Position numbers and translations under genes: made by a program. Under the pieces are notes generated by a model. It did not search any database and was not told where the DNA came from. It was given only the letters and a program-made list of their open reading frames with translations. From an uncultured Verrucomicrobiae bacterium (GTDB lineage: Bacteria > Verrucomicrobiota > Verrucomicrobiia > Limisphaerales > JAFGQR01), in contig CAWBHS010000019.1 in assembly GCA_963788655.1 (NCBI GenBank), forward strand, positions 1 to 54,238: a DNA stretch of 54,238 bases. Direction: 5' to 3'. Each line of letters opens with the position of its first letter. Within the stretch, counting starts at the first letter, position 1. Below, piece after piece: positions 14,370-54,238 of this stretch.

Positions 14370-14428
14370 AAGTCATTTGGGTTGTTCTTTTAACGCCAAA
14401 GCCACCACCAACTCACTTTGTTGCTTTG

Positions 14429-15065: not shown

Positions 15066-15095
15066 TTGACGCCTGCCCGCCCAAAAACCTAGATT
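15066..15095 (+). promoter_or_regulatory. Sigma70-like promoter of sucCD
   Basis: TTGACG-N18-TAGATT, about 35 nt upstream of the ATG. Confidence 0.4.
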
Positions 15096-15129
15096 GGCTG
15101 CCGCCGATCGTGGCATTTGAACGCAGACT

Positions 15130-16333: not shown

Positions 16334-16360
16334 CCAATACGGCGGAACACTTTACTAAAC

Positions 16361-17260
16361 ATGTCCATTCTGATCACTCCTGAAACCAAGGTGCTTGTCC
16401 AAGGCATTACCGGCAGCTTTGGCGCCCGGCACACCCAACTCAGTCTCGAATACGGCACGCAAATCGTGGCCGGCGTTACGCCGGGCAAGGGCGGTCAAAC
16501 GTTCGAACACCAGGACCATAAAGTCCCCATCTTTGACACCGTGGCCGAGGCTGTCCAGCAAACTGGGGCAACGGCTTCCGCTATTTTTGTCCCTGCGGCG
16601 TTTGCGGGAGATGCCATTCTGGAAGGTGTGGATGCCGGTTTGGAGGTGGCTGTTTGCATTACCGAAGGCATCCCCGTCATGGACATGGTGAAAGTGAAAC
16701 GGGCCATGGCCGGCGCGAAAACGCGTCTCGTAGGACCCAATTGTCCGGGATTGGTCGCGCCCGGATCCGGTAAAGACTCGCACGGCGGCTGTCGCATTGG
16801 CATTGCGCCGGGCTACATTCACCAACAAGGATCCGTCGGCGTGGTGTCGCGCAGCGGCACGCTGACCTACGAAGCGGTCTGGCAATTGACGTGCCGTGGC
16901 GTGGGCCAATCAACCTGCATCGGCATCGGTGGCGATCCGATCATCGGCACGTCGCACCTCGAGGCGATTCAAATGTTCAACGACGATCCGGACACCCGCG
17001 GCATTATCATGATCGGGGAAATCGGCGGGGCCGCCGAAGAAGAGGCGGCAGCATGGATTGCCAAACATTGCCGGAAACCAGTCGCGGGATTCATCGCCGG
17101 CGCCACCGCTCCGCCTGGACGTCGCATGGGGCATGCGGGCGCCATCGTGAGTGGAGGTAAGGGCACGGCGGCGGCCAAGATCGAAGCGATGAAAGCTGCC
17201 GGTATCGCCGTGGCCGAAACACCATCGGTCATTGCGGATACGTTGCTGAAGTTGATGTAA
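16361..17260 (+). CDS. sucD: Succinyl-CoA synthetase alpha subunit
   Basis: [22 protein letters not shown] and GRRMGHAGA (phospho-His motif). Confidence 0.97.
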
Positions 17261-17494
17261 ACAGCTTGGGCTGATTTTGGGCAATATGTCGTCGCCGTAA
17301 GGCGACCCCGCGGCATTGCAAGTAATCCATCTCCTCACGTTGGCGGCTCCAACCTGCCACTATTACAAGCAGGGGATCAGGCATCCATGCGCGGGAAGGG
17401 GCCGGTTTGGCAACCCAAGCAGAGTGAAAATCTGCTCGCCGCGAAATCAGCCCCGACTTATAGCGACAGCGATTGCAGGCGGAAGGGAACCCGC

Positions 17495-39000: not shown

Positions 39001-42000
39001 AATTGCGACCCGAATCCTGCCGTTACCTTCACCGACGCCACCACTCCGGGCCCGTGCCCGCAGGCGAAGACGGTGACGCGGACCTGGACCGCCAGGGACG
39101 CGTGCGGCAACGCCGCGTCGTGCCAACAAGTCGTTACGGTCGTGGATACCGTGCCGCCGGTGATCACCTGCCCGCCGAACGTGACGGTTCTTGTCAACAG
39201 CCCGACCGATCCGGCCAACACCTGTACGCCGACCGCCACCGACAACTGCGATCCGAATCCCACGTTCCAGCACAGTGATACCTCGATGCCGGGCACTTGC
39301 CCCGGGGAAAGCATCATCAAGCGGACTTGGACCGCCACCGACGCCTGCGGCAATTCGGCCTCTTGCGACCAGCAGATCAGTGTCATTGAACTGACCCCGT
39401 GTTTGACCATCACCAAGACTCCGAGTGCCGACCAGGTGCTGCCGTTTACGCCGGTCACCTATACGTATTGGGTCAGCAACTGCAGTTGTGTGACCGCCAC
39501 CGACGTGGTCGTGGCGGACGACAACGGCACGCCCGACTTTGCGGGCGACGACGTGGTGGTCGGGACCATCGCGGTTCTGGGTGCCGGAGAATCCGTGCAA
39601 TTGGAGCGAACCCTTATTCTGCCGGTGGACGTGTGTTGCCCGACGGATGGGGTAACCGGCCAGTTGCTCACCGAGATCCTGCCTAACGGCAACATCAAGG
39701 TCAGCTTCGTGCAGGCTTTTGATGTGAACGACAATACGTATGGCGCGAACACGATTGGCTGGGGTGGCCCCGGCAAACATTCCTTCAACAACCTCGTGGG
39801 CAGCGACCACGCCGAGTTCGCCTTCAGCAATGGAGCGGGTCAGACGGTGTTGCAATTCCAAGAGGATTACATCAGTGCGGCGTCCACCAGCCTGTATCCG
39901 TCCGGTTACGGCACGCTCGGCGTCACGGGCGGCGAAGGCAAGATGATCACCGGCAGCGCCGCGAGTGTGCTGGCGACCTCCACCTCGCTGTCGGACAACC
40001 TCAACCAGCCGCCGTTCCTGAACAACGTGGCCCAGTACACGAAGGACTCGCCGGCCTTGAGTGATCCGAATAGCGCCCAGTGGGAATACTACATGGTCTA
40101 TACCGTGGTGGTGGACAAGAACGCTTTCGGCCCCAGCGGTTTTAGCAGCGTGGCCATTGTGGATCAGCATAATTCGCCTTCCAAACGGAAGGTCTGTAGC
40201 GCGCCCGACGTGTGCAGTCCGCAGTGCGTGACCAATACCGTGGTCGTCAGCGGCCAGGCGATGGTCATGGTGACAACCAACTGCACGCAGCAAGTGCCGG
40301 TCACCCGCGCCACCCTGGCCACGGATACTGCCGTCGTCTGCATCGCCACCCCGCCGCCGCCGTGCGGCCCGTGCCAAGGCAAGGTGTCCGAACTAACCCT
40401 GCAATACTTGGGTGCCACGCCTAACGCACAAATCAAGGTGACTCAGAAGAACGGCGCGACCGTCTTCCAGGGCACCGTGCAGCCGGGCGGACAGTTCACC
40501 TTCCACGGAACCGACAACGGCACGTTCGGGACGGAGATCACGATTATGATCAACGGTGTGACGCAGACCTCCATCCACACTAGTTGCTCGCAACCGATCG
40601 GCCCAGGGTTGGTGCGGGGTGACTTCCGAGTGATCGGTGGCTCCAGTATGCAGGGCGGACCACTCTGTCCGCTCAACCTGCCTTGCATCGAGGTCATCAA
40701 GGAGATCGCCTGCTTGTTGCCGAATGATGCTTGCGGCGCCTTTGGCAAGATCGCCTCCGGTGTGGCCGGCAGCCAGGATCCTGGCTTCTGCTATCGCATC
40801 ACCGTGACCAACTGCGGCCCGGTGGGCCTGGACAACCTGCACGTCCAGGATAACCAGATGGGCGATCTGACCAGCCTGTTCTTCGCCAACGCTAGCACCG
40901 TTCTGCCAGTCAATGGCACGGTGACGCGTATCGTGAAGATGTCGTGGGGTCAGGACACCACCAACGTGGTGGTGGCCACCGGACAATCGGTCGTGAATGG
41001 CGACCAAGTGTCGGATACCGACCAGGCGGTCGCCTTGGTGACGCCGGCACGCTTGACCTGCATGGTCACGGTGACGTCGCCATGTGACACGGACGGCAAT
41101 CCGTCTGACAACCATGTCAGTTTGCCGAATGATAGCACCCCGTGCGCCGTGACGTTCACGGTGCAGATCTGTAACGAGGGGATGATGGACCTGACCCAGG
41201 TCACGCTGAGTGCTCCGGAACTGGTTAATCTGGGCTGCGCTCTGCCAGCGCCCTTCAACTTGGCCAGCGGTGAGTGCCAAACCTTCACCTGCACCGAGAC
41301 GCTGAATTGCGAAGCCTTGGGCGGCCAATCCGTGGTGGCGCACGTCACCGCGACGGCCAACGTGGTCAGCATCGGGACGCAGTGCAACTACGACTTCAAC
41401 GGCCTACCGGTTCAAGCCGGCACCGCCTGCGAAGGTGTCATCAGTTGCGGCGCCGAGCCGAAATTCCTCCTGTTCAAGAACGCCGACAAAACCATCGTCG
41501 AACCCGGCGGGGTGGTGACTTACACCTATACGGTGACGAACAACGGCACGGTAACGATCAACGACCTGGTGGTCAGTGACGACAACGGCACCCCGTCCGT
41601 CCTGAACGATGATGTGGTGGTGGGCACCTTGGATACCTTGGCGCCGGGCGCTTCGCACGACTTCGTGCGCAGCTTGATCATGCCGGTGCGGTTGTGCTCG
41701 GACCAGACCGGCAAGGAAACCGGGACGATCATCACGCAGGTGCTGCCCAACGGCAACATCCAGGCCACCTTCATCCAGTCCTTCGCCGTGAACGACAATA
41801 CCTATGGCGTTAACTCGATTGGCTGGGGGAGCAAGGTTCACAAGTTCAGCAACTTGACCGGTAGCGACAAAGCCGAGTTCCAGTTCAAGAACGGGGCCGG
41901 CCAGGTGGTGCTGGACTTCCAGCTTGACTACATCAGTTCGGCGCCAACCAGTTTGTACCCATCGGGATATGGCACGCTGGGAGTAACCGGCGGCGATGGC

Positions 42001-43155
42001 AAGATGCAGACCGGCGACGTGGCGGATGTGGTGTTCACCACCACCTCACTGACCGAGAACCTGAACAAACCGCCATTCCTGAACAACTTGGCGCAATACA
42101 CGGTGAATTCGCCCGCCCTCAACGATCCGAACAGTGGTCAATGGGAATACCGGATGATCTATACCGCCGTTGTGAGCCAGGCGGCCTTCGGAGCAAGCGG
42201 CTTTGGCGGCGTGATGATTGTGGATCAACACAACTCGCCTGCCAAGATTGATAAGTTCACCCCGGAAGCTTGCAGTGGCTGTGTCACGAACATCGCCACG
42301 GCGATCGCCACGGCGGGCGGAATTACGTTGCCATCACAATTCGCTCAGGAAGTGGTCTGCAGCGGTACGCCGGTGCCCACACCCGGCGGCGAATGCCCGC
42401 AAAAAGCCGACTACTGGAAGAAGAACACCGGTGTGTGGCCGGCGGCCTACAGTCCCAACCAGAGCGTGGGCAGCGTGTTTGTGGCGGCCTCGCTCTATCA
42501 TGATGCCGAAGGCAAGAGCCTGCTACAGGCTGTTGACGGCAAGGCCGGATCCAAGGAAGTGAAGGATATGCTCAAGGAAGCCGTGGCGGCATTGTTGAAT
42601 GCGGCGACCGACTCGATCCAATATCCGTTTACTCCGGATGAGGTGATTACGGCCGTCAACATGGCGTTGACCAACGGCGGCAAGGATTCGCTTAAGAGCC
42701 TGAAGGAACTGCTCAAGGACGCCAACGACAACAAGGATTGCAACAAGCCGTCCAAAGGCGGTAATTGCGACACCAATGGCAAGCCTAATATGCTGACCTT
42801 GAGCTACACGGGCCAAAGCTGTGCGCAGGCCTCGAATGCGCAGATGGCTTACAATGGCAAGACGTCGTGCTCGGAAACCGCGGGTGGTCCGCAAGGCGCC
42901 GCGAGTGTCCGGGTCATTGCCTCCAGCAGTTCAACGCCGCCTACTGGAAGTTCCGGTGCCTTCTTTGACGGCACTGTGAACTCAAACCAAACGTTTGATG
43001 TTCACGGCAAGTTTGGTTCCAATACCTACTTCCACGTGTATGTGGGCAACACGTTGGTGCAAACCATCCAGATGCATACGTCGTGCTCCGCTCCGTTGGT
43101 GCGGGGCGACACATTTGGCAGCCTGATGTTGGTTGATTACGGGATTGTGCCGTAA
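30028..43155 (+). CDS. Giant (4375 aa) secreted Cys-rich protein: about 34 HYR-like repeats, an inserted domain, duplicated DUF11/DUF7507-like modules and two HTSCS domains. Putative adhesin or matrix protein.
   Basis: Uninterrupted 13.1-kb ORF with a signal peptide. Repeat consensus TPPVxxCPxDxTVECxxxxxP...ATDNCD...GxCP...ITRTWTAxDxCGNxxTCxQxITVVD. Confidence 0.92.
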   Translation: MKTKYPPIACLLGITMLVIVSCLPMSAVPVLQLQSGATTVTVPDGDLLDSSPLPGVVTYVGAVGNFTINVTSGLTKPTQGTAILPEISLSSVDTSKQGGTLSLQFSDNNFSPAPSGPIFGSLGGTAASGGNLVFNTYVNSSNTELDTSGGAVMSQGPFTGAFSDDANTSVALTAPYSITMEAIITHPPSANGVASSFVFDLTTSGCCEEILLTCPPDIAVQCLGDVPPADFAGGTMVDPCNHPETIVTHVGDTTVGTCPTIITRTYQASNDCTNSTCTQIITVNDTIPPVITCAPNVTVQCLADVPPSSFSVSDNCDPNPAVQVTESSAGNCPTIITRTYEATDICTNQATCIQVITVHDTIPPVFTQTPPDVDLGCNPASVPVCDVAQVTATDNCGPVTITCGSADVVTDCDHTRTITYTAADLCTNLATFVQTITWKVDVTPPVLTGCSTDVSVQCLADIPAAVNVTALDDCDGPLAVNYSDTQTNPGSSCNNVITRTWTAVDECGNQAQCVQIITVNDTMPPVVTCPPDVTVQCLSDVPPADFVGGSVSDNCDPNPLVSHEGDVAVGACPTIITRTYAATDICGNQSTCTQIITVHDTIPPVFTQTPPPNVDLGCNPASVPVCDVAQVTATDNCGPVTITCASADVVTGCLHTRTITYTAADLCTNLATFVQTITWKVDVTPPVLTGCSTDVSVQCLADIPAAVNVTALDDCDGPLAVNYSDTQTNPGSSCNNVITRTWTAVDECGNQAQCVQIITVNDTMPPVVTCPPDVTVQCLSDVPPADFVGGSVSDNCDPNPLVSHEGDVAVGACPTIITRTYAATNICGNQSTCTQIITVHDTIPPVFTQTPPPNVDLGCNPASVPVCDVAQVTATDNCGPVTITCASADVVTGCLHTRTITYTAADLCTNLATFVQTITWKVDVTPPVLTGCSTDVSVQCLADVPAAVNVTALDDCDGPLAVNYNDTQSNPGSSCNNVITRTWTAVDQCGNQAQCVQIITVNDTTPPQITCPLDLTVQCLNNVPPDFAGGTVTDNCDPNPVVTHVSDQTVGTCPAVTTRTYRAVDACGNASTCVQTITAIDETPPVIVCPGDVTVECDQPTEPNVTGEATATDNCDLPIIIVYSDCLDCCPQPSCPQEKIIKRTWTATDACTNVATCVQTITVRDTTPPVLTCPPDLTVECGQSCDPSAAGQPTVMDACDPQVGTTYSDTETPGQCPQERVITRTWTATDDCGNSSICAQTITVADTTPPVVVCPPDRTVECSTVSAAPPSDLMPIPNPIYQDIDVFGDNTGDSSDGIEIAPGQTWLGRFDVTTGDSDPSVTITKTFDASQGGPVAAGTVFNDITTYIPGTSPGIVQATAYFYIRKAGPVPPGDVIGVSLNTQNLGMTTAAQARFILDGGITGVALVQLDLSGKLLYQVEVDSSSPSSIRLDYAQLQVTADTVHSVMPLLIYPPADMGTGTAIDACDPNPTVDHSDNITPGNCPGAFTIVRTWTGIDACGNVGSCVQRIDVVDTTPPVVTCPPDITVECSQPFDPGIVGQASAMDNCDPQVNVSFADTEIPGACPQERIIKRTWTAIDDCNNSGACVQTITIVDTTPPVVSCPPNATVECDAARDPATLGMANATDLCDPTPNVSYLDTFAAGPCPESGTVTRIWTATDACGNFATCQQIITVVDTTPPVLTCPANSTVECTEPTDPASIGMPGVEDNCDPQVTLTYADSVQPGACPQDKVITRTWTAIDDCQNTSTCVQRITVADTMPPVIVCPSDKTFQCDHPIIFGQATASDKCDPAPAITFADVVTPGACPEAQTITRTWTATDACGNAASCVQVVTIVDTVPPVLTCAPDKTIECDQPVVFNDPTVLDNCDPQVTVTSADSTTPGNCPQSYSVTRTWTAIDDCQNTSTCSQTITVVDSKPPVLVCPADLTIECTQPTDPPATGLATATDNCTPNPAVTFSDVQTPGVCPVAKLIRRTWSVADDCGNIATCVQIITVIDPVPPVVICPPNVTIECGQSTEPSGTGMATATDNCTLDQDISLTWGDTVTVGTCPEKLTLTRTWTARDECGNTATCVQTIEVMDTTPPVLACPSDVTVQCDAPTDPTVTGKPTATDNCDPSFEVDYADVVIAIPSCPSARLIERTWTATDDCGNSATCLQRITVQDSQPPALVCPVDVTVECDLPTDPLHTGKAVAFDNCAGQVTPASVDTIVPGNCPNSREIIRTWTAQDNCGNVATCDQHILVVDRTPPAFVNCPADQTIECLTPINFGQPVVTDNCDPNPHVTSVDVETPGQCPQSKMVSRTWTATDACGNAATCRQVITVVDQTPPVVVCPPNVTVQCDQLNDPSATGSAGGIDHCDPNPSVTYSDTVTDRDCPEQRTITRTWTVRDACGNAATCAQIITVVDMTPPVVVCPADVTIECDAASDPSATGMATATDECDPVFSMTYSDSVGPGGCAQARIITRTWTATDDCQNISTCVQRITLLDRTPPQVFCPPNLTLECQTPTTPDSTGSASAIDNCDPSPTVSHSETITAGPCPEAFTLNRTWTAIDACGNAAACVQTITVMDTTPPAFVSCPADVTLQCGQPTDPGSTGQPIAQDNCDPVINITPADIVSPGRCAQEKVITRTWTARDDCQNTATCVQRITVVDNIPPTLTGCPADVTAQCDAVPAPATPGANDNCDLAPVVTLVETTQPGSCPEAKTLIRTWTATDACGNASSCSQRVTVVDTTPPVIACPPNATVQCDQLSDPAATGMATATDNCDPVFEITYSDSVAPGSCPQAKVVTRTWTAKDDCQNTSTCVQIITVVDTTPPVVMCPPDRAVECDQPTTPDNLGSATATDNCDDNPALTFTDSTAPGPCPQSHIITRTWKATDACGNSATCIQIITQVDTTAPVIACPANQTVECDQPVNFGQPTITDNCDPNPVVVFTDNTTPGPCPQAKTLTRTWTATDACGNTASCQQIISVVDTTPPVIACPANLTVQCDQPINFGQPTVHDNCDPNPAVTFTDATTPGPCPQAKTVTRTWTARDACGNAASCQQVVTVVDTVPPVITCPPNVTVLVNSPTDPANTCTPTATDNCDPNPTFQHSDTSMPGTCPGESIIKRTWTATDACGNSASCDQQISVIELTPCLTITKTPSADQVLPFTPVTYTYWVSNCSCVTATDVVVADDNGTPDFAGDDVVVGTIAVLGAGESVQLERTLILPVDVCCPTDGVTGQLLTEILPNGNIKVSFVQAFDVNDNTYGANTIGWGGPGKHSFNNLVGSDHAEFAFSNGAGQTVLQFQEDYISAASTSLYPSGYGTLGVTGGEGKMITGSAASVLATSTSLSDNLNQPPFLNNVAQYTKDSPALSDPNSAQWEYYMVYTVVVDKNAFGPSGFSSVAIVDQHNSPSKRKVCSAPDVCSPQCVTNTVVVSGQAMVMVTTNCTQQVPVTRATLATDTAVVCIATPPPPCGPCQGKVSELTLQYLGATPNAQIKVTQKNGATVFQGTVQPGGQFTFHGTDNGTFGTEITIMINGVTQTSIHTSCSQPIGPGLVRGDFRVIGGSSMQGGPLCPLNLPCIEVIKEIACLLPNDACGAFGKIASGVAGSQDPGFCYRITVTNCGPVGLDNLHVQDNQMGDLTSLFFANASTVLPVNGTVTRIVKMSWGQDTTNVVVATGQSVVNGDQVSDTDQAVALVTPARLTCMVTVTSPCDTDGNPSDNHVSLPNDSTPCAVTFTVQICNEGMMDLTQVTLSAPELVNLGCALPAPFNLASGECQTFTCTETLNCEALGGQSVVAHVTATANVVSIGTQCNYDFNGLPVQAGTACEGVISCGAEPKFLLFKNADKTIVEPGGVVTYTYTVTNNGTVTINDLVVSDDNGTPSVLNDDVVVGTLDTLAPGASHDFVRSLIMPVRLCSDQTGKETGTIITQVLPNGNIQATFIQSFAVNDNTYGVNSIGWGSKVHKFSNLTGSDKAEFQFKNGAGQVVLDFQLDYISSAPTSLYPSGYGTLGVTGGDGKMQTGDVADVVFTTTSLTENLNKPPFLNNLAQYTVNSPALNDPNSGQWEYRMIYTAVVSQAAFGASGFGGVMIVDQHNSPAKIDKFTPEACSGCVTNIATAIATAGGITLPSQFAQEVVCSGTPVPTPGGECPQKADYWKKNTGVWPAAYSPNQSVGSVFVAASLYHDAEGKSLLQAVDGKAGSKEVKDMLKEAVAALLNAATDSIQYPFTPDEVITAVNMALTNGGKDSLKSLKELLKDANDNKDCNKPSKGGNCDTNGKPNMLTLSYTGQSCAQASNAQMAYNGKTSCSETAGGPQGAASVRVIASSSSTPPTGSSGAFFDGTVNSNQTFDVHGKFGSNTYFHVYVGNTLVQTIQMHTSCSAPLVRGDTFGSLMLVDYGIVP
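31100..33040 (+). repeat. Near-identical intragenic tandem repeat, 723-bp period (3 HYR-like domains), about 2.7 copies
   Basis: Near-identical off-frame ORFs recur at 31155/31878/32601, and identical ones at 31715/32438. Confidence 0.92.
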
Positions 43156-43559: not shown

Positions 43560-44625
43560 ATGTTTGAACCGGTAGCCAACCCGCGGGAATTGTTGGGAAC
43601 GATCTTAAGCGACGTATCGCGCTCGTTTTATCAGACCTTGCGCATTTTGCCAGGGGCCGTGCGTCCGCAGATCGGGTTGGCGTATTTGCTGGCGCGGGCC
43701 ACCGATACCATAGCGGATACTGAGATTGTTCCGGTGTCTGGCCGACTGGAGGCGCTCGAAAAACTGCGATCGCGCATCCTGGGCCAAAGCCAGACTCCGC
43801 TTGACTTCACTCAATTCATCCGCCCGGAAGCGTCATCCGCTCCAACTGCTTACACGGTTGGCGAGCGGGTGTTACTTGAGCGGATCGAGCAAGCCTTGAC
43901 TGTGCTCGTCAGTTTTCGAGACACCGACCAGCAACTCATTCGCGACGTGCTCTTCACCATCACCAGCGGACAGGAATTAGATTTACAACGGTTCGGCCGC
44001 GCGGAACTGGAAGCCGGCCAACGTCCCGCCCCGTCCATAGTCGCCCTCCGATCGGATGCCGAATTAGACGATTACACGTATCGCGTGGCCGGATCTGTCG
44101 GCGAATTTTGGACCCGCATCTGCCGAGCCCATATATTTCCTCGCGCACGGTTGGATGACCAAACGCTGTTGGCTAACGGGGTTCGCTTTGGCCAGGGACT
44201 GCAATTGGTTAATATTTTGCGGGACGTGCCGGCGGACTTGCGCAAAGGACGCTGCTATCTTCCGGGGGAAAGCCTGCTGGCGATCGAACTTGCTCCCGGC
44301 GACTTGTTAGATCCTCGAAATGAAACCAAATTGCGCCCGCTGTACAACCGGCTGCTGGACCGCGCCCAAGATTGTTTGAAGACCGGCTGGACCTACACTA
44401 ACATGCTGCCTTGGCGCTGCGTGCGGGTGCGCTTGGCATGTGCCTGGCCGGTGTTAATTGGTGTTCAAACGCTCAAGCGATTGCGTGAAAACAAGATTCT
44501 TGGAAGCCGGATCACCGATTAAGATTCCACGTGCCGACGTGCGTAACATTTTGCTGCGCACGGTGTTGCTTTATCTGTGGCCGTCGGCTTGGCGACGAAT
44601 GTTTGAGTGGGCTCTAAGTAAATAA
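43560..44625 (+). CDS. Squalene/phytoene synthase family protein, probable frameshift near 44500
   Basis: VSRSFY, YLLARATDTIAD, YTYRVAGSVGEFWT and GLQLVNILRD. The shifted frame continues IKIPRADVRNILL...WALSK* to 44625. Confidence 0.88.
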
Positions 44626-44748
44626 TCCTTGGATTGGCCCAGTTTTGGCTGAGAAATGGATGGCTTAAGGCGTTCAGGGGAAGTCGGAGAGTGGCGGGTG
44701 CTGCTTTCGCGATTGCCTCTGCGGGGCCTTTTAGGTAGTCAAAGAAAT

Positions 44749-47700
44749 ATGAAAATTTGCAAACGGCTGTTGATTCTTTTCTTGGGTAGCCTCGGCCTGA
44801 CTTCTGTGAAGGCCCAACCCGCCACGCCGGAACCTGTCGAACCTTCCCCCGATGGGGCGGGGCGTTCCCGGCTTGAACCGGCCGCGACTCGCGTGAATTC
44901 AAGTTCTCCCGACGTCAATGTGACCGTTGGTGCCGCACCTGATCCGGCGCAATACTTGTTGGCTCCGGAGCAGGAAGAGCAAGCCCGCAAGTTGCTGGGC
45001 ACTCCCTCCGAAATCAAGGTTGCCGCGCAACCGCAGACCATTGATCCCACTCGCGAAATCTTGCGTCAGCAGCAACTCAAGGAATCCCAACGCCAGCTTC
45101 GGGAGGAGAACCGGATGCCCTCGTCTGCGAGCGGCGCGCAGGCGGTCGCGCAGGAACTTGAGCAACGATCCCAGCAGGACGCCCAACGGCGGGAACGGAT
45201 TGCCCGGATTGAAGCGGAACTGGCTGCCCGCAAGCAGGGGCTCGCACCAACCGCTCCGGCTCCTGAGCGGCCGATGACTTCTGCTACCGTCGCCGCTCCG
45301 GTGACACCGGCCGTTGCCGCTTCGCCCACTGCTGGTCATGCTTCAGAAGTAGTCCCCTCAGCACCGGTGTCGGCACCGGCATCCGAAGTTCAAGGCGTGC
45401 CGACAACTCCTCAAGCGCCAGCCAACGAGAGCGATCTGTCGCAGGTGCAGGCAGTCCACGCTCGGGAATTACTGCACCAGGTCATGAGTGCTCCGGAAGC
45501 TGCTATTCCCGCTCCGGCGCCCCAACCAGCGGCTGCCGCAGCACCGCCCGCACCTATGCCCGCAGCCCCTGCGGCATCAGCCCCGCCGGCGGTGGCCAGT
45601 CCGGGTGAACAAACACCGATGACGGCTGAAGAAGCAGCCAAGGCGCAGGAAATTCTTCAGCAAGTATTGAATGAATCTTACTCGGCTCCCCGCGCCGCCG
45701 GTATGGTGCCGTTGAACTCTGAAACGGGAGATCATCGAACCACGGATAGCTTCTCCAAAGCTGTGAAAGGCTCTTTTTTGGGCCGGCGTGGACGTGACAT
45801 GTTTGACGTTCGTGGAGGGATTGAAATCGCGCCGCCACCCCCACCAAACTTCGCTCCTGTCGGTGAAGACGTCACTCCGTCGGGAGGCTTGGGAATGGCG
45901 CCCACCAAGGCGGCGCCAATGACTCCAACCCAGCAAAAGGAAGCATTGCAGACTTTGGAGCAGGAACTTGGGACGCCGGCGACTGCTCCGGCTTCCGCGC
46001 CGAAGGCCCCGCGCCCCACGCCTGCTCCTCCTCCGCCCCCGCCGCCAGCGCCGAAAGCGCAACTGAACGCTTCGCCGCAAGCCGCAACGGTTTCGAATTC
46101 TACCGAAGCCATGCCGAAGCCCACCTCAGCGGTGGCCGGACAAGCAACACTATTGACCGACGGCATCAACGAAAGCGAAGCCGTTCCCATCAACGCCCGC
46201 GAAGTGCCCAAGACCGATTCGGCGTCTCCCGCACCCAAACCTCAAAGCGCTCCGGCGGTGGCACCGGCCGCTCCATCTGTGGATTCATCTGCGAATGAAG
46301 TCCGGGCCAAGAAACTGATTCAGCAGGATTTGCAGGATATTTCTAAGGCGGCCCAACCCCCGAGACCTACCACGCCCGCACCGAAACTTGGGGAAACTCC
46401 GGCTCCGGCAACAACGCAATCCGCACTCAAGCCAGTTGCTCTGCCCGGTCAATTACCTCCGGGAATGGGAACCGGCGATGAACAAATACTCACCGGGAAG
46501 TTCCTGGGTTGGGTCGAGGAATCGGAGGTTGAAGAGCCGCGCATGAGCACGGAGCAGGAGTCGGCGGCCCGATCCTTGCTCTATCAAAAACTGAACGACT
46601 TGGATACGTTGACCCAGACTCCGCCCGCCACGCGAACAACACCTCCGCCGGCGAAGACTGTCAAAGCAGTCGCTCCCCCGCCCCCGCCGCCAACGGTTGC
46701 TCCAGTAGTACCAGCGCCTGCCCGCGCGGAAGTGACCCCCACAGTCGCTACTCCACCTCCGCAGCCTGCTTTAGTGGCGCCGGCATCTACGCCGGCTTCG
46801 AGTGTGCCGCAAATGACCGCTGAACCAGAAGCGGAGGCGCAGATCGTGCCCAAAACCAAGCTTGCCGAAACCAAATCGGTTCCCGCGCCGTCTCCGAGCG
46901 CCACCGCGACAATCGCGGCTGAGGCTGCTTCCGAGCCAACTCCCGCACCACCCGCGGTTGCTTCATCCCCGTCCACCGAAATGACCGAAGAGCAATCCCT
47001 TGCGGCGCGCGAACTCCTGCGGGATACCACTTACCAAATGTCCAGGCGGTCGGCGGCTGCGTCCCCCGCTGGGGAGTCAACGGCAGCCCGTCCCACCGGC
47101 CCATCGACGTCGCCGCAAGCAGGCAACCAAGGTGGGGGCATTCAACCCCCGCCGGGAGTTAACTTGTCGTCTGAAGATGAACAGAAAGCCCGCGAGGTAT
47201 TGCGTAAGAAACTATCTGAAATCAATGGCCGCAGAACAACGCCTGCGGAAAGCAGTTACGTGCCGGAACCGCTTCCGGTCGGGGGCGACGCCGCGTCAGC
47301 TTCTCCGGTTCCGGTAAAGCCGCCGGCTGCCGTTGTTCCCGAAGTTTCCCAAGCAGCTCCGATCGCTGAGCCACCGCCGGTTGCAGCCCTTCCAGCCCCG
47401 TCCGCGGCGGCGGAAGTGCCTGCCAAGCCAACCGCTCGCAACATGTCGGTCGAGCAAGAAGCCAAAGCCCGTTCGTTGTTGGACAATTCCTTGACTGAAT
47501 TGGCACCGCCGCCTGCACCCGCCGCGCCGGCAGCACTCCCACCGGCACCCAAGAGTGCGCCTCCAGTCCCGCCGCCACCGGCACCCGCATCGGCCGCGGT
47601 TGCTCCTGAATCCGCTCCGATCCCTGTGCCAGCACCGGCCGCGGTTGCCCCTACATCTGCGGCAACGGCCCCTACCGGTATGACGCCTGAAATGGAACAA

Positions 47701-48282
47701 CGAGCGAAGGCCCTCCTGGCCAGTAAGCTGAACGAGAGTGACGTAACTCCTGCTCCCGCCATGCCCACGGCCACCCTTGAAGGCCAACCACGTTCCTGGG
47801 AAAAGGGCCGGGCGGAATTGGAGCAAATCAAGAAAGCCGAGGAAGCGGCAATCGCCAAAGAGAAGGCTGCTGCCAAACGTGTGGCCAAAGCCGACGAAGC
47901 CGCGCGGAAACGGATTGAAGCAATGGAGGCCGAGGCGATGGAACAGGCACGCAACGAAGCGCGCAAGCGGCTCGAAGCGGAAGCCCAAGCCTTGGTGAAA
48001 GCGGATCGAACCGCGCCCGCCGCCGTCCCGGTGGACAGTTCAGCGCAGCCCGCTCGCCCGTCACCGACTCAGCCATCACCGGTGGCCCCGGAAACCGCTC
48101 CGCAACCCGCGCCGGCCAAAGTTACTCCTCCCAGCACCCCCGAGCCGGCACCAGCCAACGTTGCTGCGGTGACGGGGACCAAGCAAGAGCGTCTGGATGC
48201 CTTGTTGGACGCCTATGCCAGCGATAAAGTAACCGCTCAACAATATCACGTCGAACGGCAGAAGATACTTTCAGAGCCATAG
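44749..48282 (+). CDS. Secreted Pro/Ala-rich protein with interspersed helical repeats, coiled coils and a SHOCT-like C-terminus
   Basis: Signal peptide MKICKRLLILFLGSLGLTSVKA and a long open frame. C-terminus KQERLDALLDAYASDKVTAQQYHVERQKIL. Confidence 0.85.
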   Translation: MKICKRLLILFLGSLGLTSVKAQPATPEPVEPSPDGAGRSRLEPAATRVNSSSPDVNVTVGAAPDPAQYLLAPEQEEQARKLLGTPSEIKVAAQPQTIDPTREILRQQQLKESQRQLREENRMPSSASGAQAVAQELEQRSQQDAQRRERIARIEAELAARKQGLAPTAPAPERPMTSATVAAPVTPAVAASPTAGHASEVVPSAPVSAPASEVQGVPTTPQAPANESDLSQVQAVHARELLHQVMSAPEAAIPAPAPQPAAAAAPPAPMPAAPAASAPPAVASPGEQTPMTAEEAAKAQEILQQVLNESYSAPRAAGMVPLNSETGDHRTTDSFSKAVKGSFLGRRGRDMFDVRGGIEIAPPPPPNFAPVGEDVTPSGGLGMAPTKAAPMTPTQQKEALQTLEQELGTPATAPASAPKAPRPTPAPPPPPPPAPKAQLNASPQAATVSNSTEAMPKPTSAVAGQATLLTDGINESEAVPINAREVPKTDSASPAPKPQSAPAVAPAAPSVDSSANEVRAKKLIQQDLQDISKAAQPPRPTTPAPKLGETPAPATTQSALKPVALPGQLPPGMGTGDEQILTGKFLGWVEESEVEEPRMSTEQESAARSLLYQKLNDLDTLTQTPPATRTTPPPAKTVKAVAPPPPPPTVAPVVPAPARAEVTPTVATPPPQPALVAPASTPASSVPQMTAEPEAEAQIVPKTKLAETKSVPAPSPSATATIAAEAASEPTPAPPAVASSPSTEMTEEQSLAARELLRDTTYQMSRRSAAASPAGESTAARPTGPSTSPQAGNQGGGIQPPPGVNLSSEDEQKAREVLRKKLSEINGRRTTPAESSYVPEPLPVGGDAASASPVPVKPPAAVVPEVSQAAPIAEPPPVAALPAPSAAAEVPAKPTARNMSVEQEAKARSLLDNSLTELAPPPAPAAPAALPPAPKSAPPVPPPPAPASAAVAPESAPIPVPAPAAVAPTSAATAPTGMTPEMEQRAKALLASKLNESDVTPAPAMPTATLEGQPRSWEKGRAELEQIKKAEEAAIAKEKAAAKRVAKADEAARKRIEAMEAEAMEQARNEARKRLEAEAQALVKADRTAPAAVPVDSSAQPARPSPTQPSPVAPETAPQPAPAKVTPPSTPEPAPANVAAVTGTKQERLDALLDAYASDKVTAQQYHVERQKILSEP

Positions 48283-48299
48283 TTGTTTCCGTCAGCACG

Positions 48300-48332
48300 A
48301 AGCCCGTCGAGTCACGCTCGGCGGGCTTTTTT
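48300..48332 (+). terminator. Rho-independent terminator
   Basis: AAGCCCGTCGAG-TCACG-CTCGGCGGGCTT-TTTT. Confidence 0.8.
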
Positions 48333-48383
48333 GTTGGGGCTTTTCCTTTGAATTGCCCGTCGGTTTGTCATTTACTACCGCGC

Positions 48384-49682
48384 ATGCACGACTTTCGGTG
48401 GGTCGGGAACAAACTGTTTTGTGAACGCGTGGCGGTCGAAACGCTGGTGCAGCGCTTCGGCACGCCGCTTTTCGTATATTCGCAACACACGCTGACGGAT
48501 CATTTCCAGAAACTCGACCGGGCGTTCGCTCCCCTGGATCACCTTGTTTGTTATGCGATGAAGGCCAATTCGAATGCCGCGGTCATGCGAACGCTCGCCC
48601 GGCTCGGCAGCGGATTTGACGTGGTCAGCGAAGGCGAATTGCGCCGGGTGATCGCGGCGGGTGGCGATCCGCGTCAATGCGTTTTCGCGGGCGTCGGGAA
48701 GACCGAGGCGGAGATCGAGTTTGCTTTGCGACAAAACATCTACTCGTTCAACGTGGAAAGCGAACCGGAATTGCTTCGGATTAACCGCGTGGCCGCGCGC
48801 TTGCAACGGAAGGCTCCCATTGCGGTGCGGGTGAATCCCAACGTGGATGCGCACACGCACGCCAAAATCACCACGGGCACCTACGAAAACAAATTCGGCA
48901 TTCCCTTTGAGCAAGTCGAACGAGTTTATGCGCGCGCTCACAAATTGAAGAACGTCCGGTTGCGTGGCATCCAAATGCACATCGGCTCGCAACTTACCGA
49001 AGCCAAACCCTTTGAATTGGCCGTGCGAAAGGTCGCGCCGCTGGCAGCCAAACTGGCGGCCCGTTACGACTTCGAGTTCATCAGTATTGGCGGCGGAGTG
49101 GGGATTGTTTATGAACCGGCTCTGGCCAGTGGGGCGCCGGCTTGGTGGCGCTCCGCCCGCGCGCGCAAGATCCTGACGCCCGACCGTTATGCTGCCCGGT
49201 TGAAGCCCTTGCTCCAGCCGCTGGGCTTGCGCATCCTGATCGAGCCCGGACGGTTCATCGCCGGCAATGCCGGTCTCCTGGTTACGCGGGTTGAGTATGT
49301 GAAGCGCACCGGTAGCAAGAACTTTGTGATTGTCGATGCCGCCATGAATGACCTCATTCGGCCGGCATTTTACGATTCGTATCACGAAATCGTGCCGTTG
49401 AAACGCCGGCGGGGTGGCCTCGTGGCATCGGATGTCGTTGGTCCGATTTGCGAATCGGGTGATTATTTTGCCAAGGACCGCCCGCTGCCCAAAGTCGGCG
49501 AGGGCGACTACCTAGCCTTGCTGAGCGCGGGCGCCTACGGAGCGGTGATGGCTTCCAATTACAATTCGCGTCCCTTGGCTGCCGAGGTGATGGTGCGAGG
49601 AAACAAAGTCGCTTTGGTGCGTGCGCGGCAGAGCTTTGAGGCGCTTTGGGCCAATGAGATGATCCCGCCGTGGCTGCGATAA
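48384..49682 (+). CDS. lysA: Diaminopimelate decarboxylase
   Basis: YAMKANSN, FAGVGKT, HIGSQ, IEPGRFIAG, VVGPICESGD and GAYGAVMASNYNSRP. Confidence 0.96.
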   Translation: MHDFRWVGNKLFCERVAVETLVQRFGTPLFVYSQHTLTDHFQKLDRAFAPLDHLVCYAMKANSNAAVMRTLARLGSGFDVVSEGELRRVIAAGGDPRQCVFAGVGKTEAEIEFALRQNIYSFNVESEPELLRINRVAARLQRKAPIAVRVNPNVDAHTHAKITTGTYENKFGIPFEQVERVYARAHKLKNVRLRGIQMHIGSQLTEAKPFELAVRKVAPLAAKLAARYDFEFISIGGGVGIVYEPALASGAPAWWRSARARKILTPDRYAARLKPLLQPLGLRILIEPGRFIAGNAGLLVTRVEYVKRTGSKNFVIVDAAMNDLIRPAFYDSYHEIVPLKRRRGGLVASDVVGPICESGDYFAKDRPLPKVGEGDYLALLSAGAYGAVMASNYNSRPLAAEVMVRGNKVALVRARQSFEALWANEMIPPWLR

Positions 49683-49691
49683 CCGTTCCCG

Positions 49692-50423
49692 TTATGCTTT
49701 CATCGCTGGGCTTTGCTTCCGCCGCAATGGCCGCCATCGCTGGCGCCAGTTGAAGCCTTGCAGGCCGGCGAATTGCCGTTTGTAGTCCAGGACGGAAGGC
49801 TCCCCAAATACATAACCGAGGTAGTAATAGCGGCAGCCGCGCGCCCGGGCGTAAGCCATTTCCCACAGGATGGTGCATATTCCCAGGCTGCGCCGGGCTT
49901 GGGTCGGACAGAACATCCCATAGACGCTGTAAACGCTCCGCTTGCCAACGTCCAGGTAGCTCGCGGCCACCAGGCGCCCGTCGAACCGCGCGCTGAACTC
50001 GATCAGTTCACACGGATATAATTCCAAGTGCGGTCCCAAGAAATTATCGAGAGACTCTGGTCGGTGCGTTTGGAAGCGCCTTTTGTGAAGGTCAAAAAGC
50101 TGGTGCCGTTCCTCGTTCAACACCGCCGGTTGGATGGTCCATTGCAAATCCTCATTGCGGCGCAAAATGCGGCGTTGGCTTTTCGAAGGGGTGAAGCGAT
50201 CCAGGACAATGCGCAGTGGGAGCACCGCTTGAATACCCCCGCGCCAATGGCGAAACGAGTAACGGGCAAACCTCGGTCCAAAGTGCCGCCAACCCTGCCG
50301 CCACAGGGCGTCCATGCGTTGCGGGGCAACCGAAAAATCTACGAACGCCTCATCAATGACTGGAGGAGCGTTTTTGACCCAAACGCTTTTGTCCGAAAAC
50401 CTGCTGGTCGGAAGCTGATTCAT
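49692..50423 (-). CDS. ATE/Bpt-like aminoacyl-tRNA--protein transferase family protein
   Basis: GWRHFG, PLRIVLDRFTPSKSQRRILRRN, SVYGMF...RRSLG and YYYLGY...DYKRQF. Confidence 0.8.
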   Translation of the reverse strand: MNQLPTSRFSDKSVWVKNAPPVIDEAFVDFSVAPQRMDALWRQGWRHFGPRFARYSFRHWRGGIQAVLPLRIVLDRFTPSKSQRRILRRNEDLQWTIQPAVLNEERHQLFDLHKRRFQTHRPESLDNFLGPHLELYPCELIEFSARFDGRLVAASYLDVGKRSVYSVYGMFCPTQARRSLGICTILWEMAYARARGCRYYYLGYVFGEPSVLDYKRQFAGLQGFNWRQRWRPLRRKQSPAMKA

Positions 50424-50715
50424 TGTTTGACCAACGAAATCATAGCATGAAAACGCCGGATGCGCCTCTGGTGCTGGAGTATTGCGCCGGATGCTGGATG
50501 GTATCACTTGGGTGGTGCTGGCGCGAAGCCGTCCCGGCCACAGCAAGGGATTGGCGTATGACTCTGAGAATCGCCCAAATTCACTGCTCGTTTCAACTTG
50601 CTGCGGCCCGGTTGGCCACGCGCGGATAACTCCGGAATGCCGTCACATACTTGATGGAATCGGCTTTTGCGTTTGACACCTTGGCGTGGGAGCGACAAAA
50701 GAAGCCTTGATAACG

Positions 50716-51996
50716 ATGGCAGCAAAGTCTCGAACAACGGATTCCCGTCCTTCGGTCATGGTTTTTGGCGTGGGCGCTTTCACGCACAGCGTGATGCGGA
50801 TCCTGCGCGAAGCCGGAGCCCGCGTCTCAGCATACTTGATGCGGGATTACGGCCATCACGGGCCGGCTCTGGCGGGGCCGGTTTACCGGGCTTCCGAACA
50901 GCCGACGCCGTTTGCCGCCCTCAAAGCGGAACGGCCGGATTTTGTGGTGCCCATGGCGATCGATTGGGCGCTGAAACCCTGGGCGGAAAAATTCCTGGAA
51001 TGCGGCGTGCCGCTGGTGTGCCCGACCAACGAGGCCTTGCGGTTGGAGCGGGACCGTGATTTTGCCCGGGCGCTCTGCCGCAAGTATCGCATCCCTTTCC
51101 CAGAGGCTTGGGTGGCGCGCGACCGGCGGGAAGCCTTGGCCATGGTCAAGCGCCGACGGCGGCCGTTCGTGATGAAGAACCCGCTCTGTTCGCCCTTCAG
51201 TCCGTTGCACACGATTGTTTGTGAAACCGTCGAGGAAACGTGCTCTTGGCTGGAGCGGGCCAACGATGCCGAAGGGATTTTTCTCCAAGAATACCTGGGG
51301 CGCGCCGAAGCGGGTCATATCGCGCTCGTCAGCGGCGGGGAAATTCATTCGCTGGTGACGAACCAGGAATACAAACGGGCATTCGACGGCAACCAGGGCA
51401 TTGTGGCGGGCGCGCCCCTGGGCGGTTTGGTGGAGAAAGATCCGGGTGACAAGTACGGATTAGCGCGGGAACTCATTCATCCGCTGCGTTCCTGGTTTCG
51501 CGATGTCAATTTCAATGGACCGGTCCAGGTGACGGCCATTCAATACCGCGGGCGTTGGCACGTGATCGAATACAACGTGCGCCTGGGCGTTACTAGCGGC
51601 GGACTGATACTCCGCTTGCTGGCCAATCCGCTGGAGGTGTTGCGGGGCACGGCTTTGAACCAAAGGTTGCAGGTTCGTTTTCGCCCGGGCTTGCGCTTTG
51701 GTTGCTCGGTTACGCTGGCCGGTTACGGCTATCCGTACGTGGCTTTGGAAGGGCCCCGCGTGCCCGTACGCGTCGCTGGTAAGCCGACGTGTGATATTTG
51801 GTGGAACGAAGTGGCTGCAGACGCGCGGGGGCAACTGTGGACTACCGGCCATCGGATTGCGGACGTGGCGGCGGTAGCCGGCAGTTTGCCGGCGGCCATT
51901 CGCACGGCATACGAAAACATCCAACGGCTAAGTTCTTTGGGGAGTTATTATCGGTTGGACGTGGGCCGGTCACTTTGGCCTCCCGGATCGGTGTGA
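50716..51996 (+). CDS. Divergent PurD-like ATP-grasp ligase
   Basis: PurD architecture (LE, QEYLG, QEYKRAFDGNQG, EYNVRLG, YYRLDVG), but the canonical GGREHA, KADGLAAGKGV, GPNTGGMG and RFGDPE motifs are replaced. Confidence 0.8.
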   Translation: MAAKSRTTDSRPSVMVFGVGAFTHSVMRILREAGARVSAYLMRDYGHHGPALAGPVYRASEQPTPFAALKAERPDFVVPMAIDWALKPWAEKFLECGVPLVCPTNEALRLERDRDFARALCRKYRIPFPEAWVARDRREALAMVKRRRRPFVMKNPLCSPFSPLHTIVCETVEETCSWLERANDAEGIFLQEYLGRAEAGHIALVSGGEIHSLVTNQEYKRAFDGNQGIVAGAPLGGLVEKDPGDKYGLARELIHPLRSWFRDVNFNGPVQVTAIQYRGRWHVIEYNVRLGVTSGGLILRLLANPLEVLRGTALNQRLQVRFRPGLRFGCSVTLAGYGYPYVALEGPRVPVRVAGKPTCDIWWNEVAADARGQLWTTGHRIADVAAVAGSLPAAIRTAYENIQRLSSLGSYYRLDVGRSLWPPGSV

Positions 51997-52007
51997 GCGC
52001 GCCCGGA

Positions 52008-53201
52008 ATGAAACCGACCGACGTTGTGGACGCCTCCTTGAAGATTACCCCCGCTGAACGGGGGGTGCCAGGATCGGGCCATCACGAACCGGTGCGGCGA
52101 TCCGCGTGGGTGGAAATTGACCGCCAACGATTGCGCCGGAATTTCCAGATCATTAACCAGCACAAACCACCAGGGCTACAATTGCTGTCGGTGGTCAAAG
52201 ACAATGCATACGGCCATGGGGCAGGGGAGGTGGCGCGCATTGCTCTGGAATCGGGGGCTGTCGGTCTTGGCGTCACCACGATGGATGAGGCGGTGGAACT
52301 GCGTCAGTTGGGAATTCAGGATCCCATTCTGATGCTGGGCGAACGTTGTCCGGATGAACTGCCGGCGTGCCTCGATTATCGGTTGACTGTCAGCGTCGGC
52401 GAAATGCGCGTCGCTCAAAGACTGGATCGGCTGGCTCGGCATCGCGGCGAGCGGGTAGGCGTTCATTTCAAAGTCGATACGGGCATGAGCCGGTATGGAG
52501 TAAGGTGGACGGACGCCGCCGCCGCGGCACAGGAACTGGCCACCATGCCGGGACTCGAATTGAAGGGCATCATGAGCCATTTCGCCATGTCGGATGAGGC
52601 CGACAAAACGTTTGCGCGGCTACAACTGGAACGTTTTCAAGAGGTGTTGGACGCCGTGGAGGCTCGCGGGTTGAAGGTGCCCGTGCGCCATCTGTGCAAT
52701 ACCGGCGGATTCTTGGACTTGCCGCCGGCCTGGTTTGACATGGTGCGCATTGGCATTCTGCCGCTGGGGGTGTACCCGTCGAAGGTTTGCCGGCGCTTAC
52801 CGGGACTGTTGCCGGTCATGAGCGTGAAAGCCAGGGTGGTCAGCCTGCGGCAATTGAACCCCGGCGACACCTACGGCTACGGCCTGCGGTACAAAGCTGA
52901 GACGCGCCGACAGATCGCGGTGCTGCCGGTGGGATATGGCGATGGCTTCCCGCGCTTGCGCAACGAAGGCTTTGTGTTGGTCCACGGCCGACGCGCTCCC
53001 ATCATTGGGGGCGTGGCCATGGATGCCATCGGCGTCGATGTGACGGAAATTCCCGAAATCCAGCTTGGGGATGATGTCGTTCTGATGGGGGAGGACGGGG
53101 AGGAGCGAATTTTGGCAAACGACATCGCCGGTTGGAAGCGGAGTGTTGCCTATGACGCACTGGCGGGTTGGCGCCACCGGTTGCCGCGGATTTACGTTTG
53201 A
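52008..53201 (+). CDS. alr: Alanine racemase family PLP enzyme
   Basis: AWVEID, VVKDNAYGHG (PLP Lys), KVDTGMSRYG, SHFA, GYG catalytic Tyr region, VGYGDG and RLPRIY. Confidence 0.85.
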   Translation: MKPTDVVDASLKITPAERGVPGSGHHEPVRRSAWVEIDRQRLRRNFQIINQHKPPGLQLLSVVKDNAYGHGAGEVARIALESGAVGLGVTTMDEAVELRQLGIQDPILMLGERCPDELPACLDYRLTVSVGEMRVAQRLDRLARHRGERVGVHFKVDTGMSRYGVRWTDAAAAAQELATMPGLELKGIMSHFAMSDEADKTFARLQLERFQEVLDAVEARGLKVPVRHLCNTGGFLDLPPAWFDMVRIGILPLGVYPSKVCRRLPGLLPVMSVKARVVSLRQLNPGDTYGYGLRYKAETRRQIAVLPVGYGDGFPRLRNEGFVLVHGRRAPIIGGVAMDAIGVDVTEIPEIQLGDDVVLMGEDGEERILANDIAGWKRSVAYDALAGWRHRLPRIYV

Positions 53202-53218
53202 ACGCCCTGCCGATTGCC

Positions 53219-54058
53219 ATGATTCTCCTTTTTTCCGAGTCCGATGCCGATTACGCGCGCTACCGTTATCCTTATGTGATCTGGGCGGCGCCCGAGCCGG
53301 GGGAAACACCGGCAGACTTTTTTCGTTGTGGGTTCTTGCCGGCGTCACCCCAGTTGGACCGGTTTTATCTTTGCCGGAACCTCCGGGTGGATCTCCACCG
53401 GTTTCAACCCTCATCCGAAAACCGCCGTATCTTGCGCAAAGGAGAAGGGGTGACGGTTGAGTTGATGGCGCGCGAACACTTCGATTATTCCGCCACCCGG
53501 CGGCAAGCCTGGAAGGCGTTTGCGGATCAGCGTTTTGGCGCCGACATCATGAGCTTTGATCGCCTGGACAAACTGATGAGTGGGCCGGTGGTTTCGCATC
53601 TGTTGCACTTCGCCGACCAGGCGACCGGGCGGGAAGTTGGCACCGTGTTGTTATTCGTGGAGGAACCGACGGTTGCTTACTACTACTATGCCTTCTACGA
53701 CTTGGATTATGTTCAACGCAGCCTGGGAATGTACATGATGACCAGGGCGGTCGAGTTGATGGCGCAACGGGGCTTCGCTTATTTGCACCTGGGCACGTGT
53801 TATTCGGAACGGGCGCTCTACAAAACGCAATTTGCTGGCGTCGAATTCTTCAATGGCTTCCGCTGGTCGGACAATGTGGACGAACTAAAGTTCCTGCTCA
53901 AACGAGACCAGGAAACGTCTCCGCCACATCTTTTGGAAATGACCTCCTTCCGCGAAACCTTTTATCCGGGCTCGGTCACTGAACTGGCCGTCATAGGACA
54001 TTTTCGGCTACCGCTGCCAAGGACTGCCGGAAATGACCAAGAAACCAATGACCAATGA
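53219..54058 (+). CDS. Second, more divergent ATE/Bpt-like (GNAT-fold) aminoacyl-tRNA transferase
   Basis: LRVDLHRFQPSSENRRILRK, YYYAFYDLD...RSLGMYMM and YLHLGTCY...LYKTQF. Confidence 0.72.
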   Translation: MILLFSESDADYARYRYPYVIWAAPEPGETPADFFRCGFLPASPQLDRFYLCRNLRVDLHRFQPSSENRRILRKGEGVTVELMAREHFDYSATRRQAWKAFADQRFGADIMSFDRLDKLMSGPVVSHLLHFADQATGREVGTVLLFVEEPTVAYYYYAFYDLDYVQRSLGMYMMTRAVELMAQRGFAYLHLGTCYSERALYKTQFAGVEFFNGFRWSDNVDELKFLLKRDQETSPPHLLEMTSFRETFYPGSVTELAVIGHFRLPLPRTAGNDQETNDQ

Positions 54059-54173
54059 CCAAAGAATTCTCAATGGCAAATGACCAATAGAATCGCGAGG
54101 AGTTGATCAGTTCTTGGTTGGTGCTTATGGGCTTGGGCATTCTTTGGTGTTTGGGGCTTAGTCCTTGGCCATT
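54032..54173. repeat. Heptamer repeat element with two inverted arms
   Basis: AATGACC AAGAAACC AATGACC AATGACC AAAGAAT on the left, and an opposed arm whose reverse complement reads AATGGCC AAGGACT AAGCCCC AAACACC AAAGAAT. Confidence 0.75.
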
Positions 54174-54238
54174 AGCCAAACGCTCCCACCACGACGTGTT
54201 CCGCCTCCGAGCGACCCTTACGCCAACCTCAAGCTCCT

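Follow-up and report, generated by a model that had tools for sequence, protein, structure and literature searches.

We describe a three-gene unit, grasp-alrX-bptB, that encodes a PurD-like ATP-grasp ligase (GraspX), an Alr-family racemase (AlrX) and an ATE1-like protein (BptB), and that lies near one end of contig CAWBHS010000019.1 (G000:C19). The entire 54,238-bp contig is the window analysed here, and the sequence in view ends with it at position 54238; the source bin comprises 8.96 Mb in 115 contigs and is 86% complete. On the forward strand, GraspX occupies an open reading frame (ORF) at 50686-51996 with a probable start at 50716 or 50758, the latter in agreement with a public gene model of 412 amino acids, and matches GARS_A (32.9 bits) and GARS_C (32.6 bits). 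It is followed on the same strand by AlrX (52008-53201; 332.9 bits for TIGR00492, cut-off 168) and BptB (53219-54058; 29.1 bits for ATE_C, cut-off 25, and 27.6 bits for Acetyltransf_6). A first-pass annotation, made from the sequence alone, had described three co-directional genes with gaps of 11 and 17 nucleotides (nt), and the stop and start codons bear this out: TGA at 51994-51996 and ATG at 52008 separate GraspX from AlrX by 11 nt, and TGA at 53199-53201 and ATG at 53219 separate AlrX from BptB by 17 nt.

The same annotation had placed a second ATE-like gene on the other side of roughly 290 bp and lysA beside it, and both are there. BptA, divergent on the reverse strand, has an ORF at 49692-50546 with a probable start at 50423 (gene 49692-50423), an ATE_C score of 69.5 bits and a weak ATE_N match, and the spacer between it and GraspX (50424-50715) measures 292 nt; lysA, for diaminopimelate decarboxylase, lies at 48348-49682 on the forward strand (484 bits for TIGR01048, cut-off 298). 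BptA and BptB are the only two ATE_C genes of the genome. A canonical purD (contig C49, 511.2 bits for TIGR00877), a second alr (contig C25, 348 bits) and ddl (contig C88, 278 bits) are encoded elsewhere, so that GraspX and AlrX are not the sole purD and alr of this genome, as the idea of a separate system had supposed. An Rfam scan of 48000-54238 gave no match at E <= 1, and promoter and terminator scans gave scores no better than those of shuffled sequence. The sequencing runs listed give small shares in two soil DNA runs, with no RNA run among them.

The arrangement recurs well outside this contig. In a sample of 41 genomes from the same order, G000 included, GraspX orthologues occur in 13 (G000 counted; 47-78% identity), and alr and BptB lie directly downstream of grasp in nine of the 12 order loci that we fetched. 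The other three comprise one that ends inside alr at a contig end, one with alr and no BptB (G002) and one in which grasp lies on one contig and an alr-BptB pair on another (G037). Scanning species-representative genomes returned at least 407 relatives, and tblastn maps of the best 80 of these at least 407 loci revealed 40 tight same-strand trios, 7 looser trios, 14 loci with grasp and alr and 13 with grasp only; six end too early to judge, which leaves the trio in 47 of 74 judgeable loci, 40 of them tight. Only one of 300 genomes from the phylum outside the order is grasp-positive, the complete 4.2-Mb genome G277, and it carries the full operon. We also grouped the ORFs of the 80 loci by greedy clustering, which found no further conserved neighbour (one 23-locus cluster consists of antisense ORFs over grasp); this method lost some real genes in G+C-rich DNA and the tblastn maps were therefore used.

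Co-occurrence extends to genomes where the genes are not linked. BptB was present elsewhere in five of five tested genomes that seemed to have grasp alone, and in five of five that seemed to have grasp and alr only. In the order sample (n = 41), 13 genomes have grasp, 14 have BptB and 12 have both; in a second phylum (n = 81), the corresponding numbers are 29, 33 and 28. Fisher tests return p = 1e-7 for the order and 1e-15 for the second phylum, values that exaggerate the evidence, since related genomes do not count as independent samples. Among 35 distinct second-phylum loci (L045 and L175 being the same contig), 11 have grasp-alrX-BptB, 6 have grasp and BptB adjacent without alr between them, 7 have grasp-alrX, 8 have grasp behind a PfkB-type kinase and 3 have grasp alone. 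The PfkB-type kinase of these eight loci, which is Khk-like and precedes grasp, was considered as a partner and rejected because it occurs in 31 of 41 order genomes regardless of the ligase. Across the two phyla, the trio proteins are 50-65% identical.

The same gene order thus recurs in dozens of genomes, which places it beyond chance. The conserved unit is the three co-directional genes grasp-alrX-bptB, not the five of the window, and of the first-pass proposal it is the association of an ATP-grasp gene, an Alr gene and one ATE/Bpt-like gene that neighbourhood and co-occurrence data agree on (47/74 loci linked; 10/10 genomes tested where unlinked). These data show a three-gene module under joint selection.

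GraspX is a PurD-derived ATP-grasp ligase. Its sequence matches among solved structures are to PurD only (best E 7e-34), and its predicted model, with a predicted local distance difference test (pLDDT) score of 85, has the four-domain PurD fold (TM-score 0.73-0.81 with 2YW2, 2IP4 and 1GSO). It falls well below the PurD equivalog cut-off, with 107.9 compared to 288 bits for TIGR00877. We mapped its residues by phmmer alignment to A. aeolicus PurD (2YW2), for which PMC8880213 lists E100, K103, K143, E185, E192 and K214 as ATP/Mg residues and D212, R287 and E292 as glycine-binding. By that list, most of the ATP/Mg set is retained (E100, K143, E192 and K214 are identical, K103 is conservatively replaced by R, and E185 reads Q), and the GraspX residues at all six positions are invariant in 12 orthologues. 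Two of the three glycine-binding residues listed there are changed (D212 to E and E292 to S), with the carboxylate-binding arginine R287 kept. The genome's own PurD has the N-terminal motif GSGGREHA where GraspX has GVGAFTHS. We take the GGREHA-type motif to have a role in binding phosphoribosylamine (PRA). The comparison of sequences shows a retained ATP/Mg site and an altered glycine/PRA site.

Unlike PurD, GraspX further carries a replaced B-loop and an added, conserved C-terminal SLWPPG tail. Its invariant residues C121, C158, H165, C169 and C359 (numbered from the start at 50716) are concentrated in the replaced B-loop and may form a metal site or redox switch. The family is large, with more than 2000 clusters at 90% identity and members in at least 407 species genomes, and its only public name is "phosphoribosylamine--glycine ligase", which is probably wrong. 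A complex prediction for GraspX with BptB, run without controls, scored 0.00 and speaks neither for nor against a complex.

AlrX resembles Alr/DadX in passing the alanine racemase cut-off and in its catalytic motifs. VVKDNAYGHG and TYGYG, which we take to be the motif of the pyridoxal phosphate (PLP)-binding lysine and that of the second catalytic tyrosine, align with those of the solved alanine racemases 4Y2W and 8ZPE (best E 2e-69), and an AlrX tyrosine aligns with that of their ..NYE.. segment, presumably a mark of alanine specificity. Matches in the PDB also include serine, lysine, histidine and broad-spectrum racemases of the Alr family.

AlrX differs from Alr/DadX in forming a clade apart. 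Identity to the AlrX of the window is 49-72% for Alr proteins whose genes are linked with grasp or BptB, and 32-38% both for second copies and for the only copies present in genomes that lack grasp; the lower range is also that for the order's housekeeping Alr. A maximum-likelihood tree unites the linked proteins in a single clade (37 rows, SH-aLRT 100, stem length 1.2) that also holds four unlinked second-phylum copies and leaves the housekeeping Alr outside. Genomes with adjacent grasp and BptB contribute a group sister to this clade (support 98) plus a housekeeping-type copy. A profile of AlrX scores 521-635 bits in 12 grasp-positive order genomes, finds a partial copy in G013 (85% complete, with alr and BptB at a contig edge) and gives at most 324 bits in all others, so that AlrX-type genes in the order are confined to grasp-positive genomes plus G013. 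AlrX is therefore its own Alr clade, whose presence tracks the ligase. No alr was found in 14 of the 41 order genomes (TIGR00492, E <= 1e-20), many of them more than 94% complete, which suggests that other routes to D-alanine exist in the order.

BptB is a small family, with 142 representatives (E <= 1e-30) among 1.84 billion proteins. It is like Bpt/ATE1 (PF04377, PF04376) in its ATE_C match (29.1-29.3 bits compared to a gathering score of 25; 29 of 30 orthologues match), and it differs from them in having no ATE_N match and in remaining below every NCBIfam bpt cut-off (best 50.8 compared to 170 bits for the PRK01305 models), which no orthologue reaches. Pfam assigns it ATE_C and Acetyltransf_6 only, with no FemAB or LPG_synthase_C match, and its profile has no match to PDB sequences at E <= 1. 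In the alignment region that corresponds to ATE_N, C52 alone is a near-invariant cysteine.

The first matches of the BptB model (pLDDT 85) are human and yeast ATE1 (Foldseek E 1.8e-9), followed by FemX, the aminoacyl-phosphatidylglycerol synthase domains of MprF, and Sba18/Sbb17. With VIA-align, the whole model superposes on human ATE1 (Z 17.1, root mean square deviation 4.0, 250 of 279 residues) and on K. lactis and yeast Ate1 (Z 12-15); MprF domains (Z 13-14) and FemX (Z 10-11) align over 147-160 residues, and acetyl-CoA GNATs also match with Z of roughly 10. The predicted aminoacyl-tRNA transferase fold upholds the ATE/Bpt-like assignment of the first-pass annotation. Within the alignment, the basic segment SSENRR-LRK is invariant, and in PMC9351520 a positively charged helix is described as common to aminoacyl-tRNA transferases (Ate1, Fem and aminoacyl-phosphatidylglycerol synthases) and Ate1 as having a four-cysteine zinc site. 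We infer that the segment corresponds to the tRNA-binding helix of Ate1, and the four-cysteine site has no counterpart in BptB. The fold matches and the invariant basic segment make aminoacyl-tRNA a candidate donor.

Three unusual BptB-like frames deserve mention on their own. P0234 (809 amino acids), a distant relative, has a BptB-like N-terminal domain fused to an ATP-grasp-type PPDK_N domain and a phosphoenolpyruvate (PEP)-utilizer mobile domain. P0163 (373 amino acids) combines GARS_A and BptB portions and may be a gene-calling chimera. In G021, BptB lies inside a 695-amino-acid open frame without another domain; this is probably not a fusion and the frame over-long.

We tentatively read grasp-alrX-bptB as one functional module that would build an amide-linked, D-alanine-containing product in the cytoplasm, a reading to which we give slightly less than even weight. 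By the chemistry of its family, AlrX would racemise L-alanine to D-alanine. GraspX, using ATP, would activate a small amino acid by phosphorylating its carboxylate, D-alanine being the most likely substitute for PurD's glycine, and would couple the acyl phosphate to an amine other than phosphoribosylamine. BptB would move an aminoacyl group from aminoacyl-tRNA to a free amino group of the GraspX product or of an acceptor. Among possible acceptors, we consider a precursor of the cell envelope, for example the stem peptide of peptidoglycan, rather unlikely and a soluble small molecule or short peptide slightly less likely still; the rest of our expectation lies with other acceptors.

Several findings weigh against a D-alanine-conjugating module of this kind. 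The three genes do not always travel together: G002 has grasp and alr and no BptB, G400 has grasp without BptB, and BptB occurs without grasp in G021 of the order and in 5 of 52 grasp-negative second-phylum genomes. ATP use by GraspX is likely from its retained residues, but the glycine-rich B-loop of PurD, ADGLALGKGV, reads NPLCSPFSPLHT in GraspX, and confidence in the model is low at residues 221-232. Seven genomes (G002, G004, G005, G008, G017, G018 and G040) yielded no alr besides that of the operon, so that AlrX may simply be their alanine racemase. No mur/dcw gene, transporter or regulator recurs beside the trio in the loci examined. Lastly, in four of four second-phylum genomes examined, BptB lies directly behind, and on the same strand as, a gene for an M3 oligoendopeptidase F (L124 8859-10658, L125 8786-10612, L126 249-2045 and L127 5964-7895), the two ORFs overlapping by 4 nt in L125 and L126; this context hints at peptide substrates, not a D-alanine conjugate. 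PepF is not next to BptB in five Verrucomicrobia loci or in the window.

A special case of the proposed module, which we consider unlikely, is that it edits or branches the peptidoglycan stem peptide, AlrX and GraspX adding a D-amino acid to an amine of a cell-wall precursor and BptB the next residue. Gram-positive cell-wall cross-bridges are made by a racemase paired with an ATP-grasp D-aspartate ligase and by Fem transferases, and the trio has these same three classic enzyme types (racemase, ATP-grasp ligase and tRNA-dependent GNAT-fold transferase), with FemX and MprF domains among the fold matches of BptB. It differs in its PurD-type ligase, its Alr-type racemase, its Gram-negative-type Verrucomicrobiota host and in that no linkage to cell-wall genes was seen, mur/dcw genes lying beside it in none of the loci examined. 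The sole-alr status of the operon gene in seven grasp-positive genomes fits a true alanine racemase and speaks for such a role; the normal ddl of the window's genome and the patchy spread of the ligase (13 of 41 order genomes and 1 of 300 elsewhere in the phylum) argue against it.

Gene contexts bear on this reading as well. The lysA next to the trio in the window is echoed in the complete second-phylum genome G398 (L166, G398:C1:3390000-3408000), in which grasp-BptB is part of a same-strand string on the minus strand (approximately 4869-17999). There it is preceded by genes for aspartate kinase (lysC), dapB, dapA, dapF, an aminotransferase, a PLP decarboxylase, an Rce1-like protease and a GNAT, and followed by those for a 276-amino-acid protein of unknown function, a second PLP decarboxylase and nhaA. 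This diaminopimelate (DAP)/lysine string is suggestive, but with two cases among more than 100 loci the association is not conserved. Genes of PF00144, the beta-lactamase/DD-peptidase family, occur near BptB in two of the four oligoendopeptidase F loci.

Those loci also speak for a different and rather improbable role, in which BptB would add an amino acid to peptidase-made N-termini, in the manner of N-degron tagging, and GraspX would modify the same peptides. Full-length ATE1 is the closest fold to BptB, and besides the oligoendopeptidase F gene in front of BptB in all four genomes, five second-phylum loci have a gene for an Rce1-like CPBP protease ahead of grasp-BptB, two of them with a RimJ/RimL-type GNAT as well. 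These peptidase contexts are restricted to sub-clades, however, and such tailoring leaves no role for a racemase or for a PurD-type small-substrate ligase. BptB itself has no ATE_N match, scores far below the bpt cut-offs and has C52 as its one near-invariant cysteine, compared to the zinc finger of four given for Ate1 in PMC9351520.

That there is no joint pathway at all, and that the locus merely co-transcribes housekeeping paralogues (a PurD variant active in purine metabolism or a related function, a plain alanine racemase, and a GNAT-fold protein with no connection to them), seems to us very improbable. The public annotation of the ligase as phosphoribosylamine-glycine ligase, the score of AlrX above the alr cut-off together with its sole-copy status in several genomes, and the dispersal of the genes in many others would all agree with it. 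They are outweighed by co-occurrence without linkage (10 of 10 genomes tested, and BptB present in 12 of the 13 genomes with grasp in the order and in 28 of the 29 in the second phylum), by the true purD present in the genome, by the altered glycine triad and N-terminal motif of GraspX, and by the separate AlrX clade that tracks the ligase.

Of the five genes, lysA and BptA do not belong to the conserved unit. Neither the 12 loci of the order nor the 80 of the collection gave a lysA match, and the one other DAP/lysine-operon context is that of G398, in another phylum; lysA is thus not a conserved neighbour of the system. Nor was there any BptA-type match in either set, where the BptA query produced only weak cross-matches of 26-31% to BptB. 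The two proteins are homologous (hhalign probability 97.4%, 30% identity between profiles), and BptA is nevertheless a family separate from BptB and outside the conserved trio: G001, a genome of the same genus, carries it on a different contig with unrelated neighbours, and G011 and G033 have it although they lack grasp, which leaves the divergent ATE-like gene without support as part of the system that the first-pass annotation had proposed. A system of all five genes, with lysA and the two ATE-like genes acting alongside the ligase and the racemase, suggested by their adjacency in the window, the homology of BptA and BptB and the second lysA/DAP context in G398, is largely refuted by this lack of conservation and is the least probable of the readings considered.

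Elsewhere in the window, a 4375-amino-acid ORF (30028-43155, forward) with repeated HYR-like four-cysteine domains (PF23237, 395 bits), DUF7467 and DUF7507 probably encodes a very large protein of the cell surface or of adhesin type. A 1208-amino-acid ORF (44656-48282, forward), flanked by a squalene/phytoene-synthase-family gene (43560-44522) and lysA, is without a Pfam or NCBIfam match. The match of a 268-amino-acid ORF on the reverse strand (13124-13930) to histidyl-tRNA synthetase is confined to the N-terminal core (PF13393, positions 10-144 of 308), and this ORF may be a HisZ-like or truncated paralogue.

The enzyme families of the trio are known; their subfamilies and their combination are undescribed in the literature searched. 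In searches limited to papers that need no subscription, we found none that combines an ATP-grasp enzyme, an alanine racemase and an arginyltransferase and none that describes the trio, and within that scope the earlier statement that no such pathway has been described holds. A parallel in logic is that of Sba18/Sbb17 (9WQY and 9WQW), tRNA-dependent peptide synthases of natural-product pathways that move an amino acid from aminoacyl-tRNA onto a small-molecule amine and whose GNAT-type fold BptB matches with Z of roughly 10. The kinship is one of distant fold only, and the trio is without the transporters and tailoring enzymes that are features of biosynthetic clusters.

To our knowledge, PurD is regarded as a single-function purine enzyme, and a large, well-conserved offshoot whose ATP site is intact and whose substrate site has been rebuilt would represent a new ligase activity. 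Likewise, we know of bacterial ATE/Bpt-like proteins only from N-degron tagging, and a BptB family found in the company of a ligase and a racemase points to a second non-translational use of aminoacyl-tRNA. The label phosphoribosylamine--glycine ligase could, in addition, inflate purine-pathway calls in metagenome bins. In its widest form, which we put forward as possible and somewhat doubtful, the trio would be a hitherto unrecognised non-ribosomal peptide-bond pathway under strong selection in two phyla, in which a PurD descendant that joins D-alanine to a new amine, in place of glycine and phosphoribosylamine, and a minimal ATE1-like enzyme taking a further residue from aminoacyl-tRNA yield either a D-alanine branch in the envelope or a new conserved metabolite of Verrucomicrobiota. 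The hosts are Limisphaerales/Pedosphaera-type Verrucomicrobiota of soil and fresh water, which are abundant and poorly studied, and a cell-wall or metabolite feature specific to the trio would, if true, provide both a useful marker for them and a biochemical lead.

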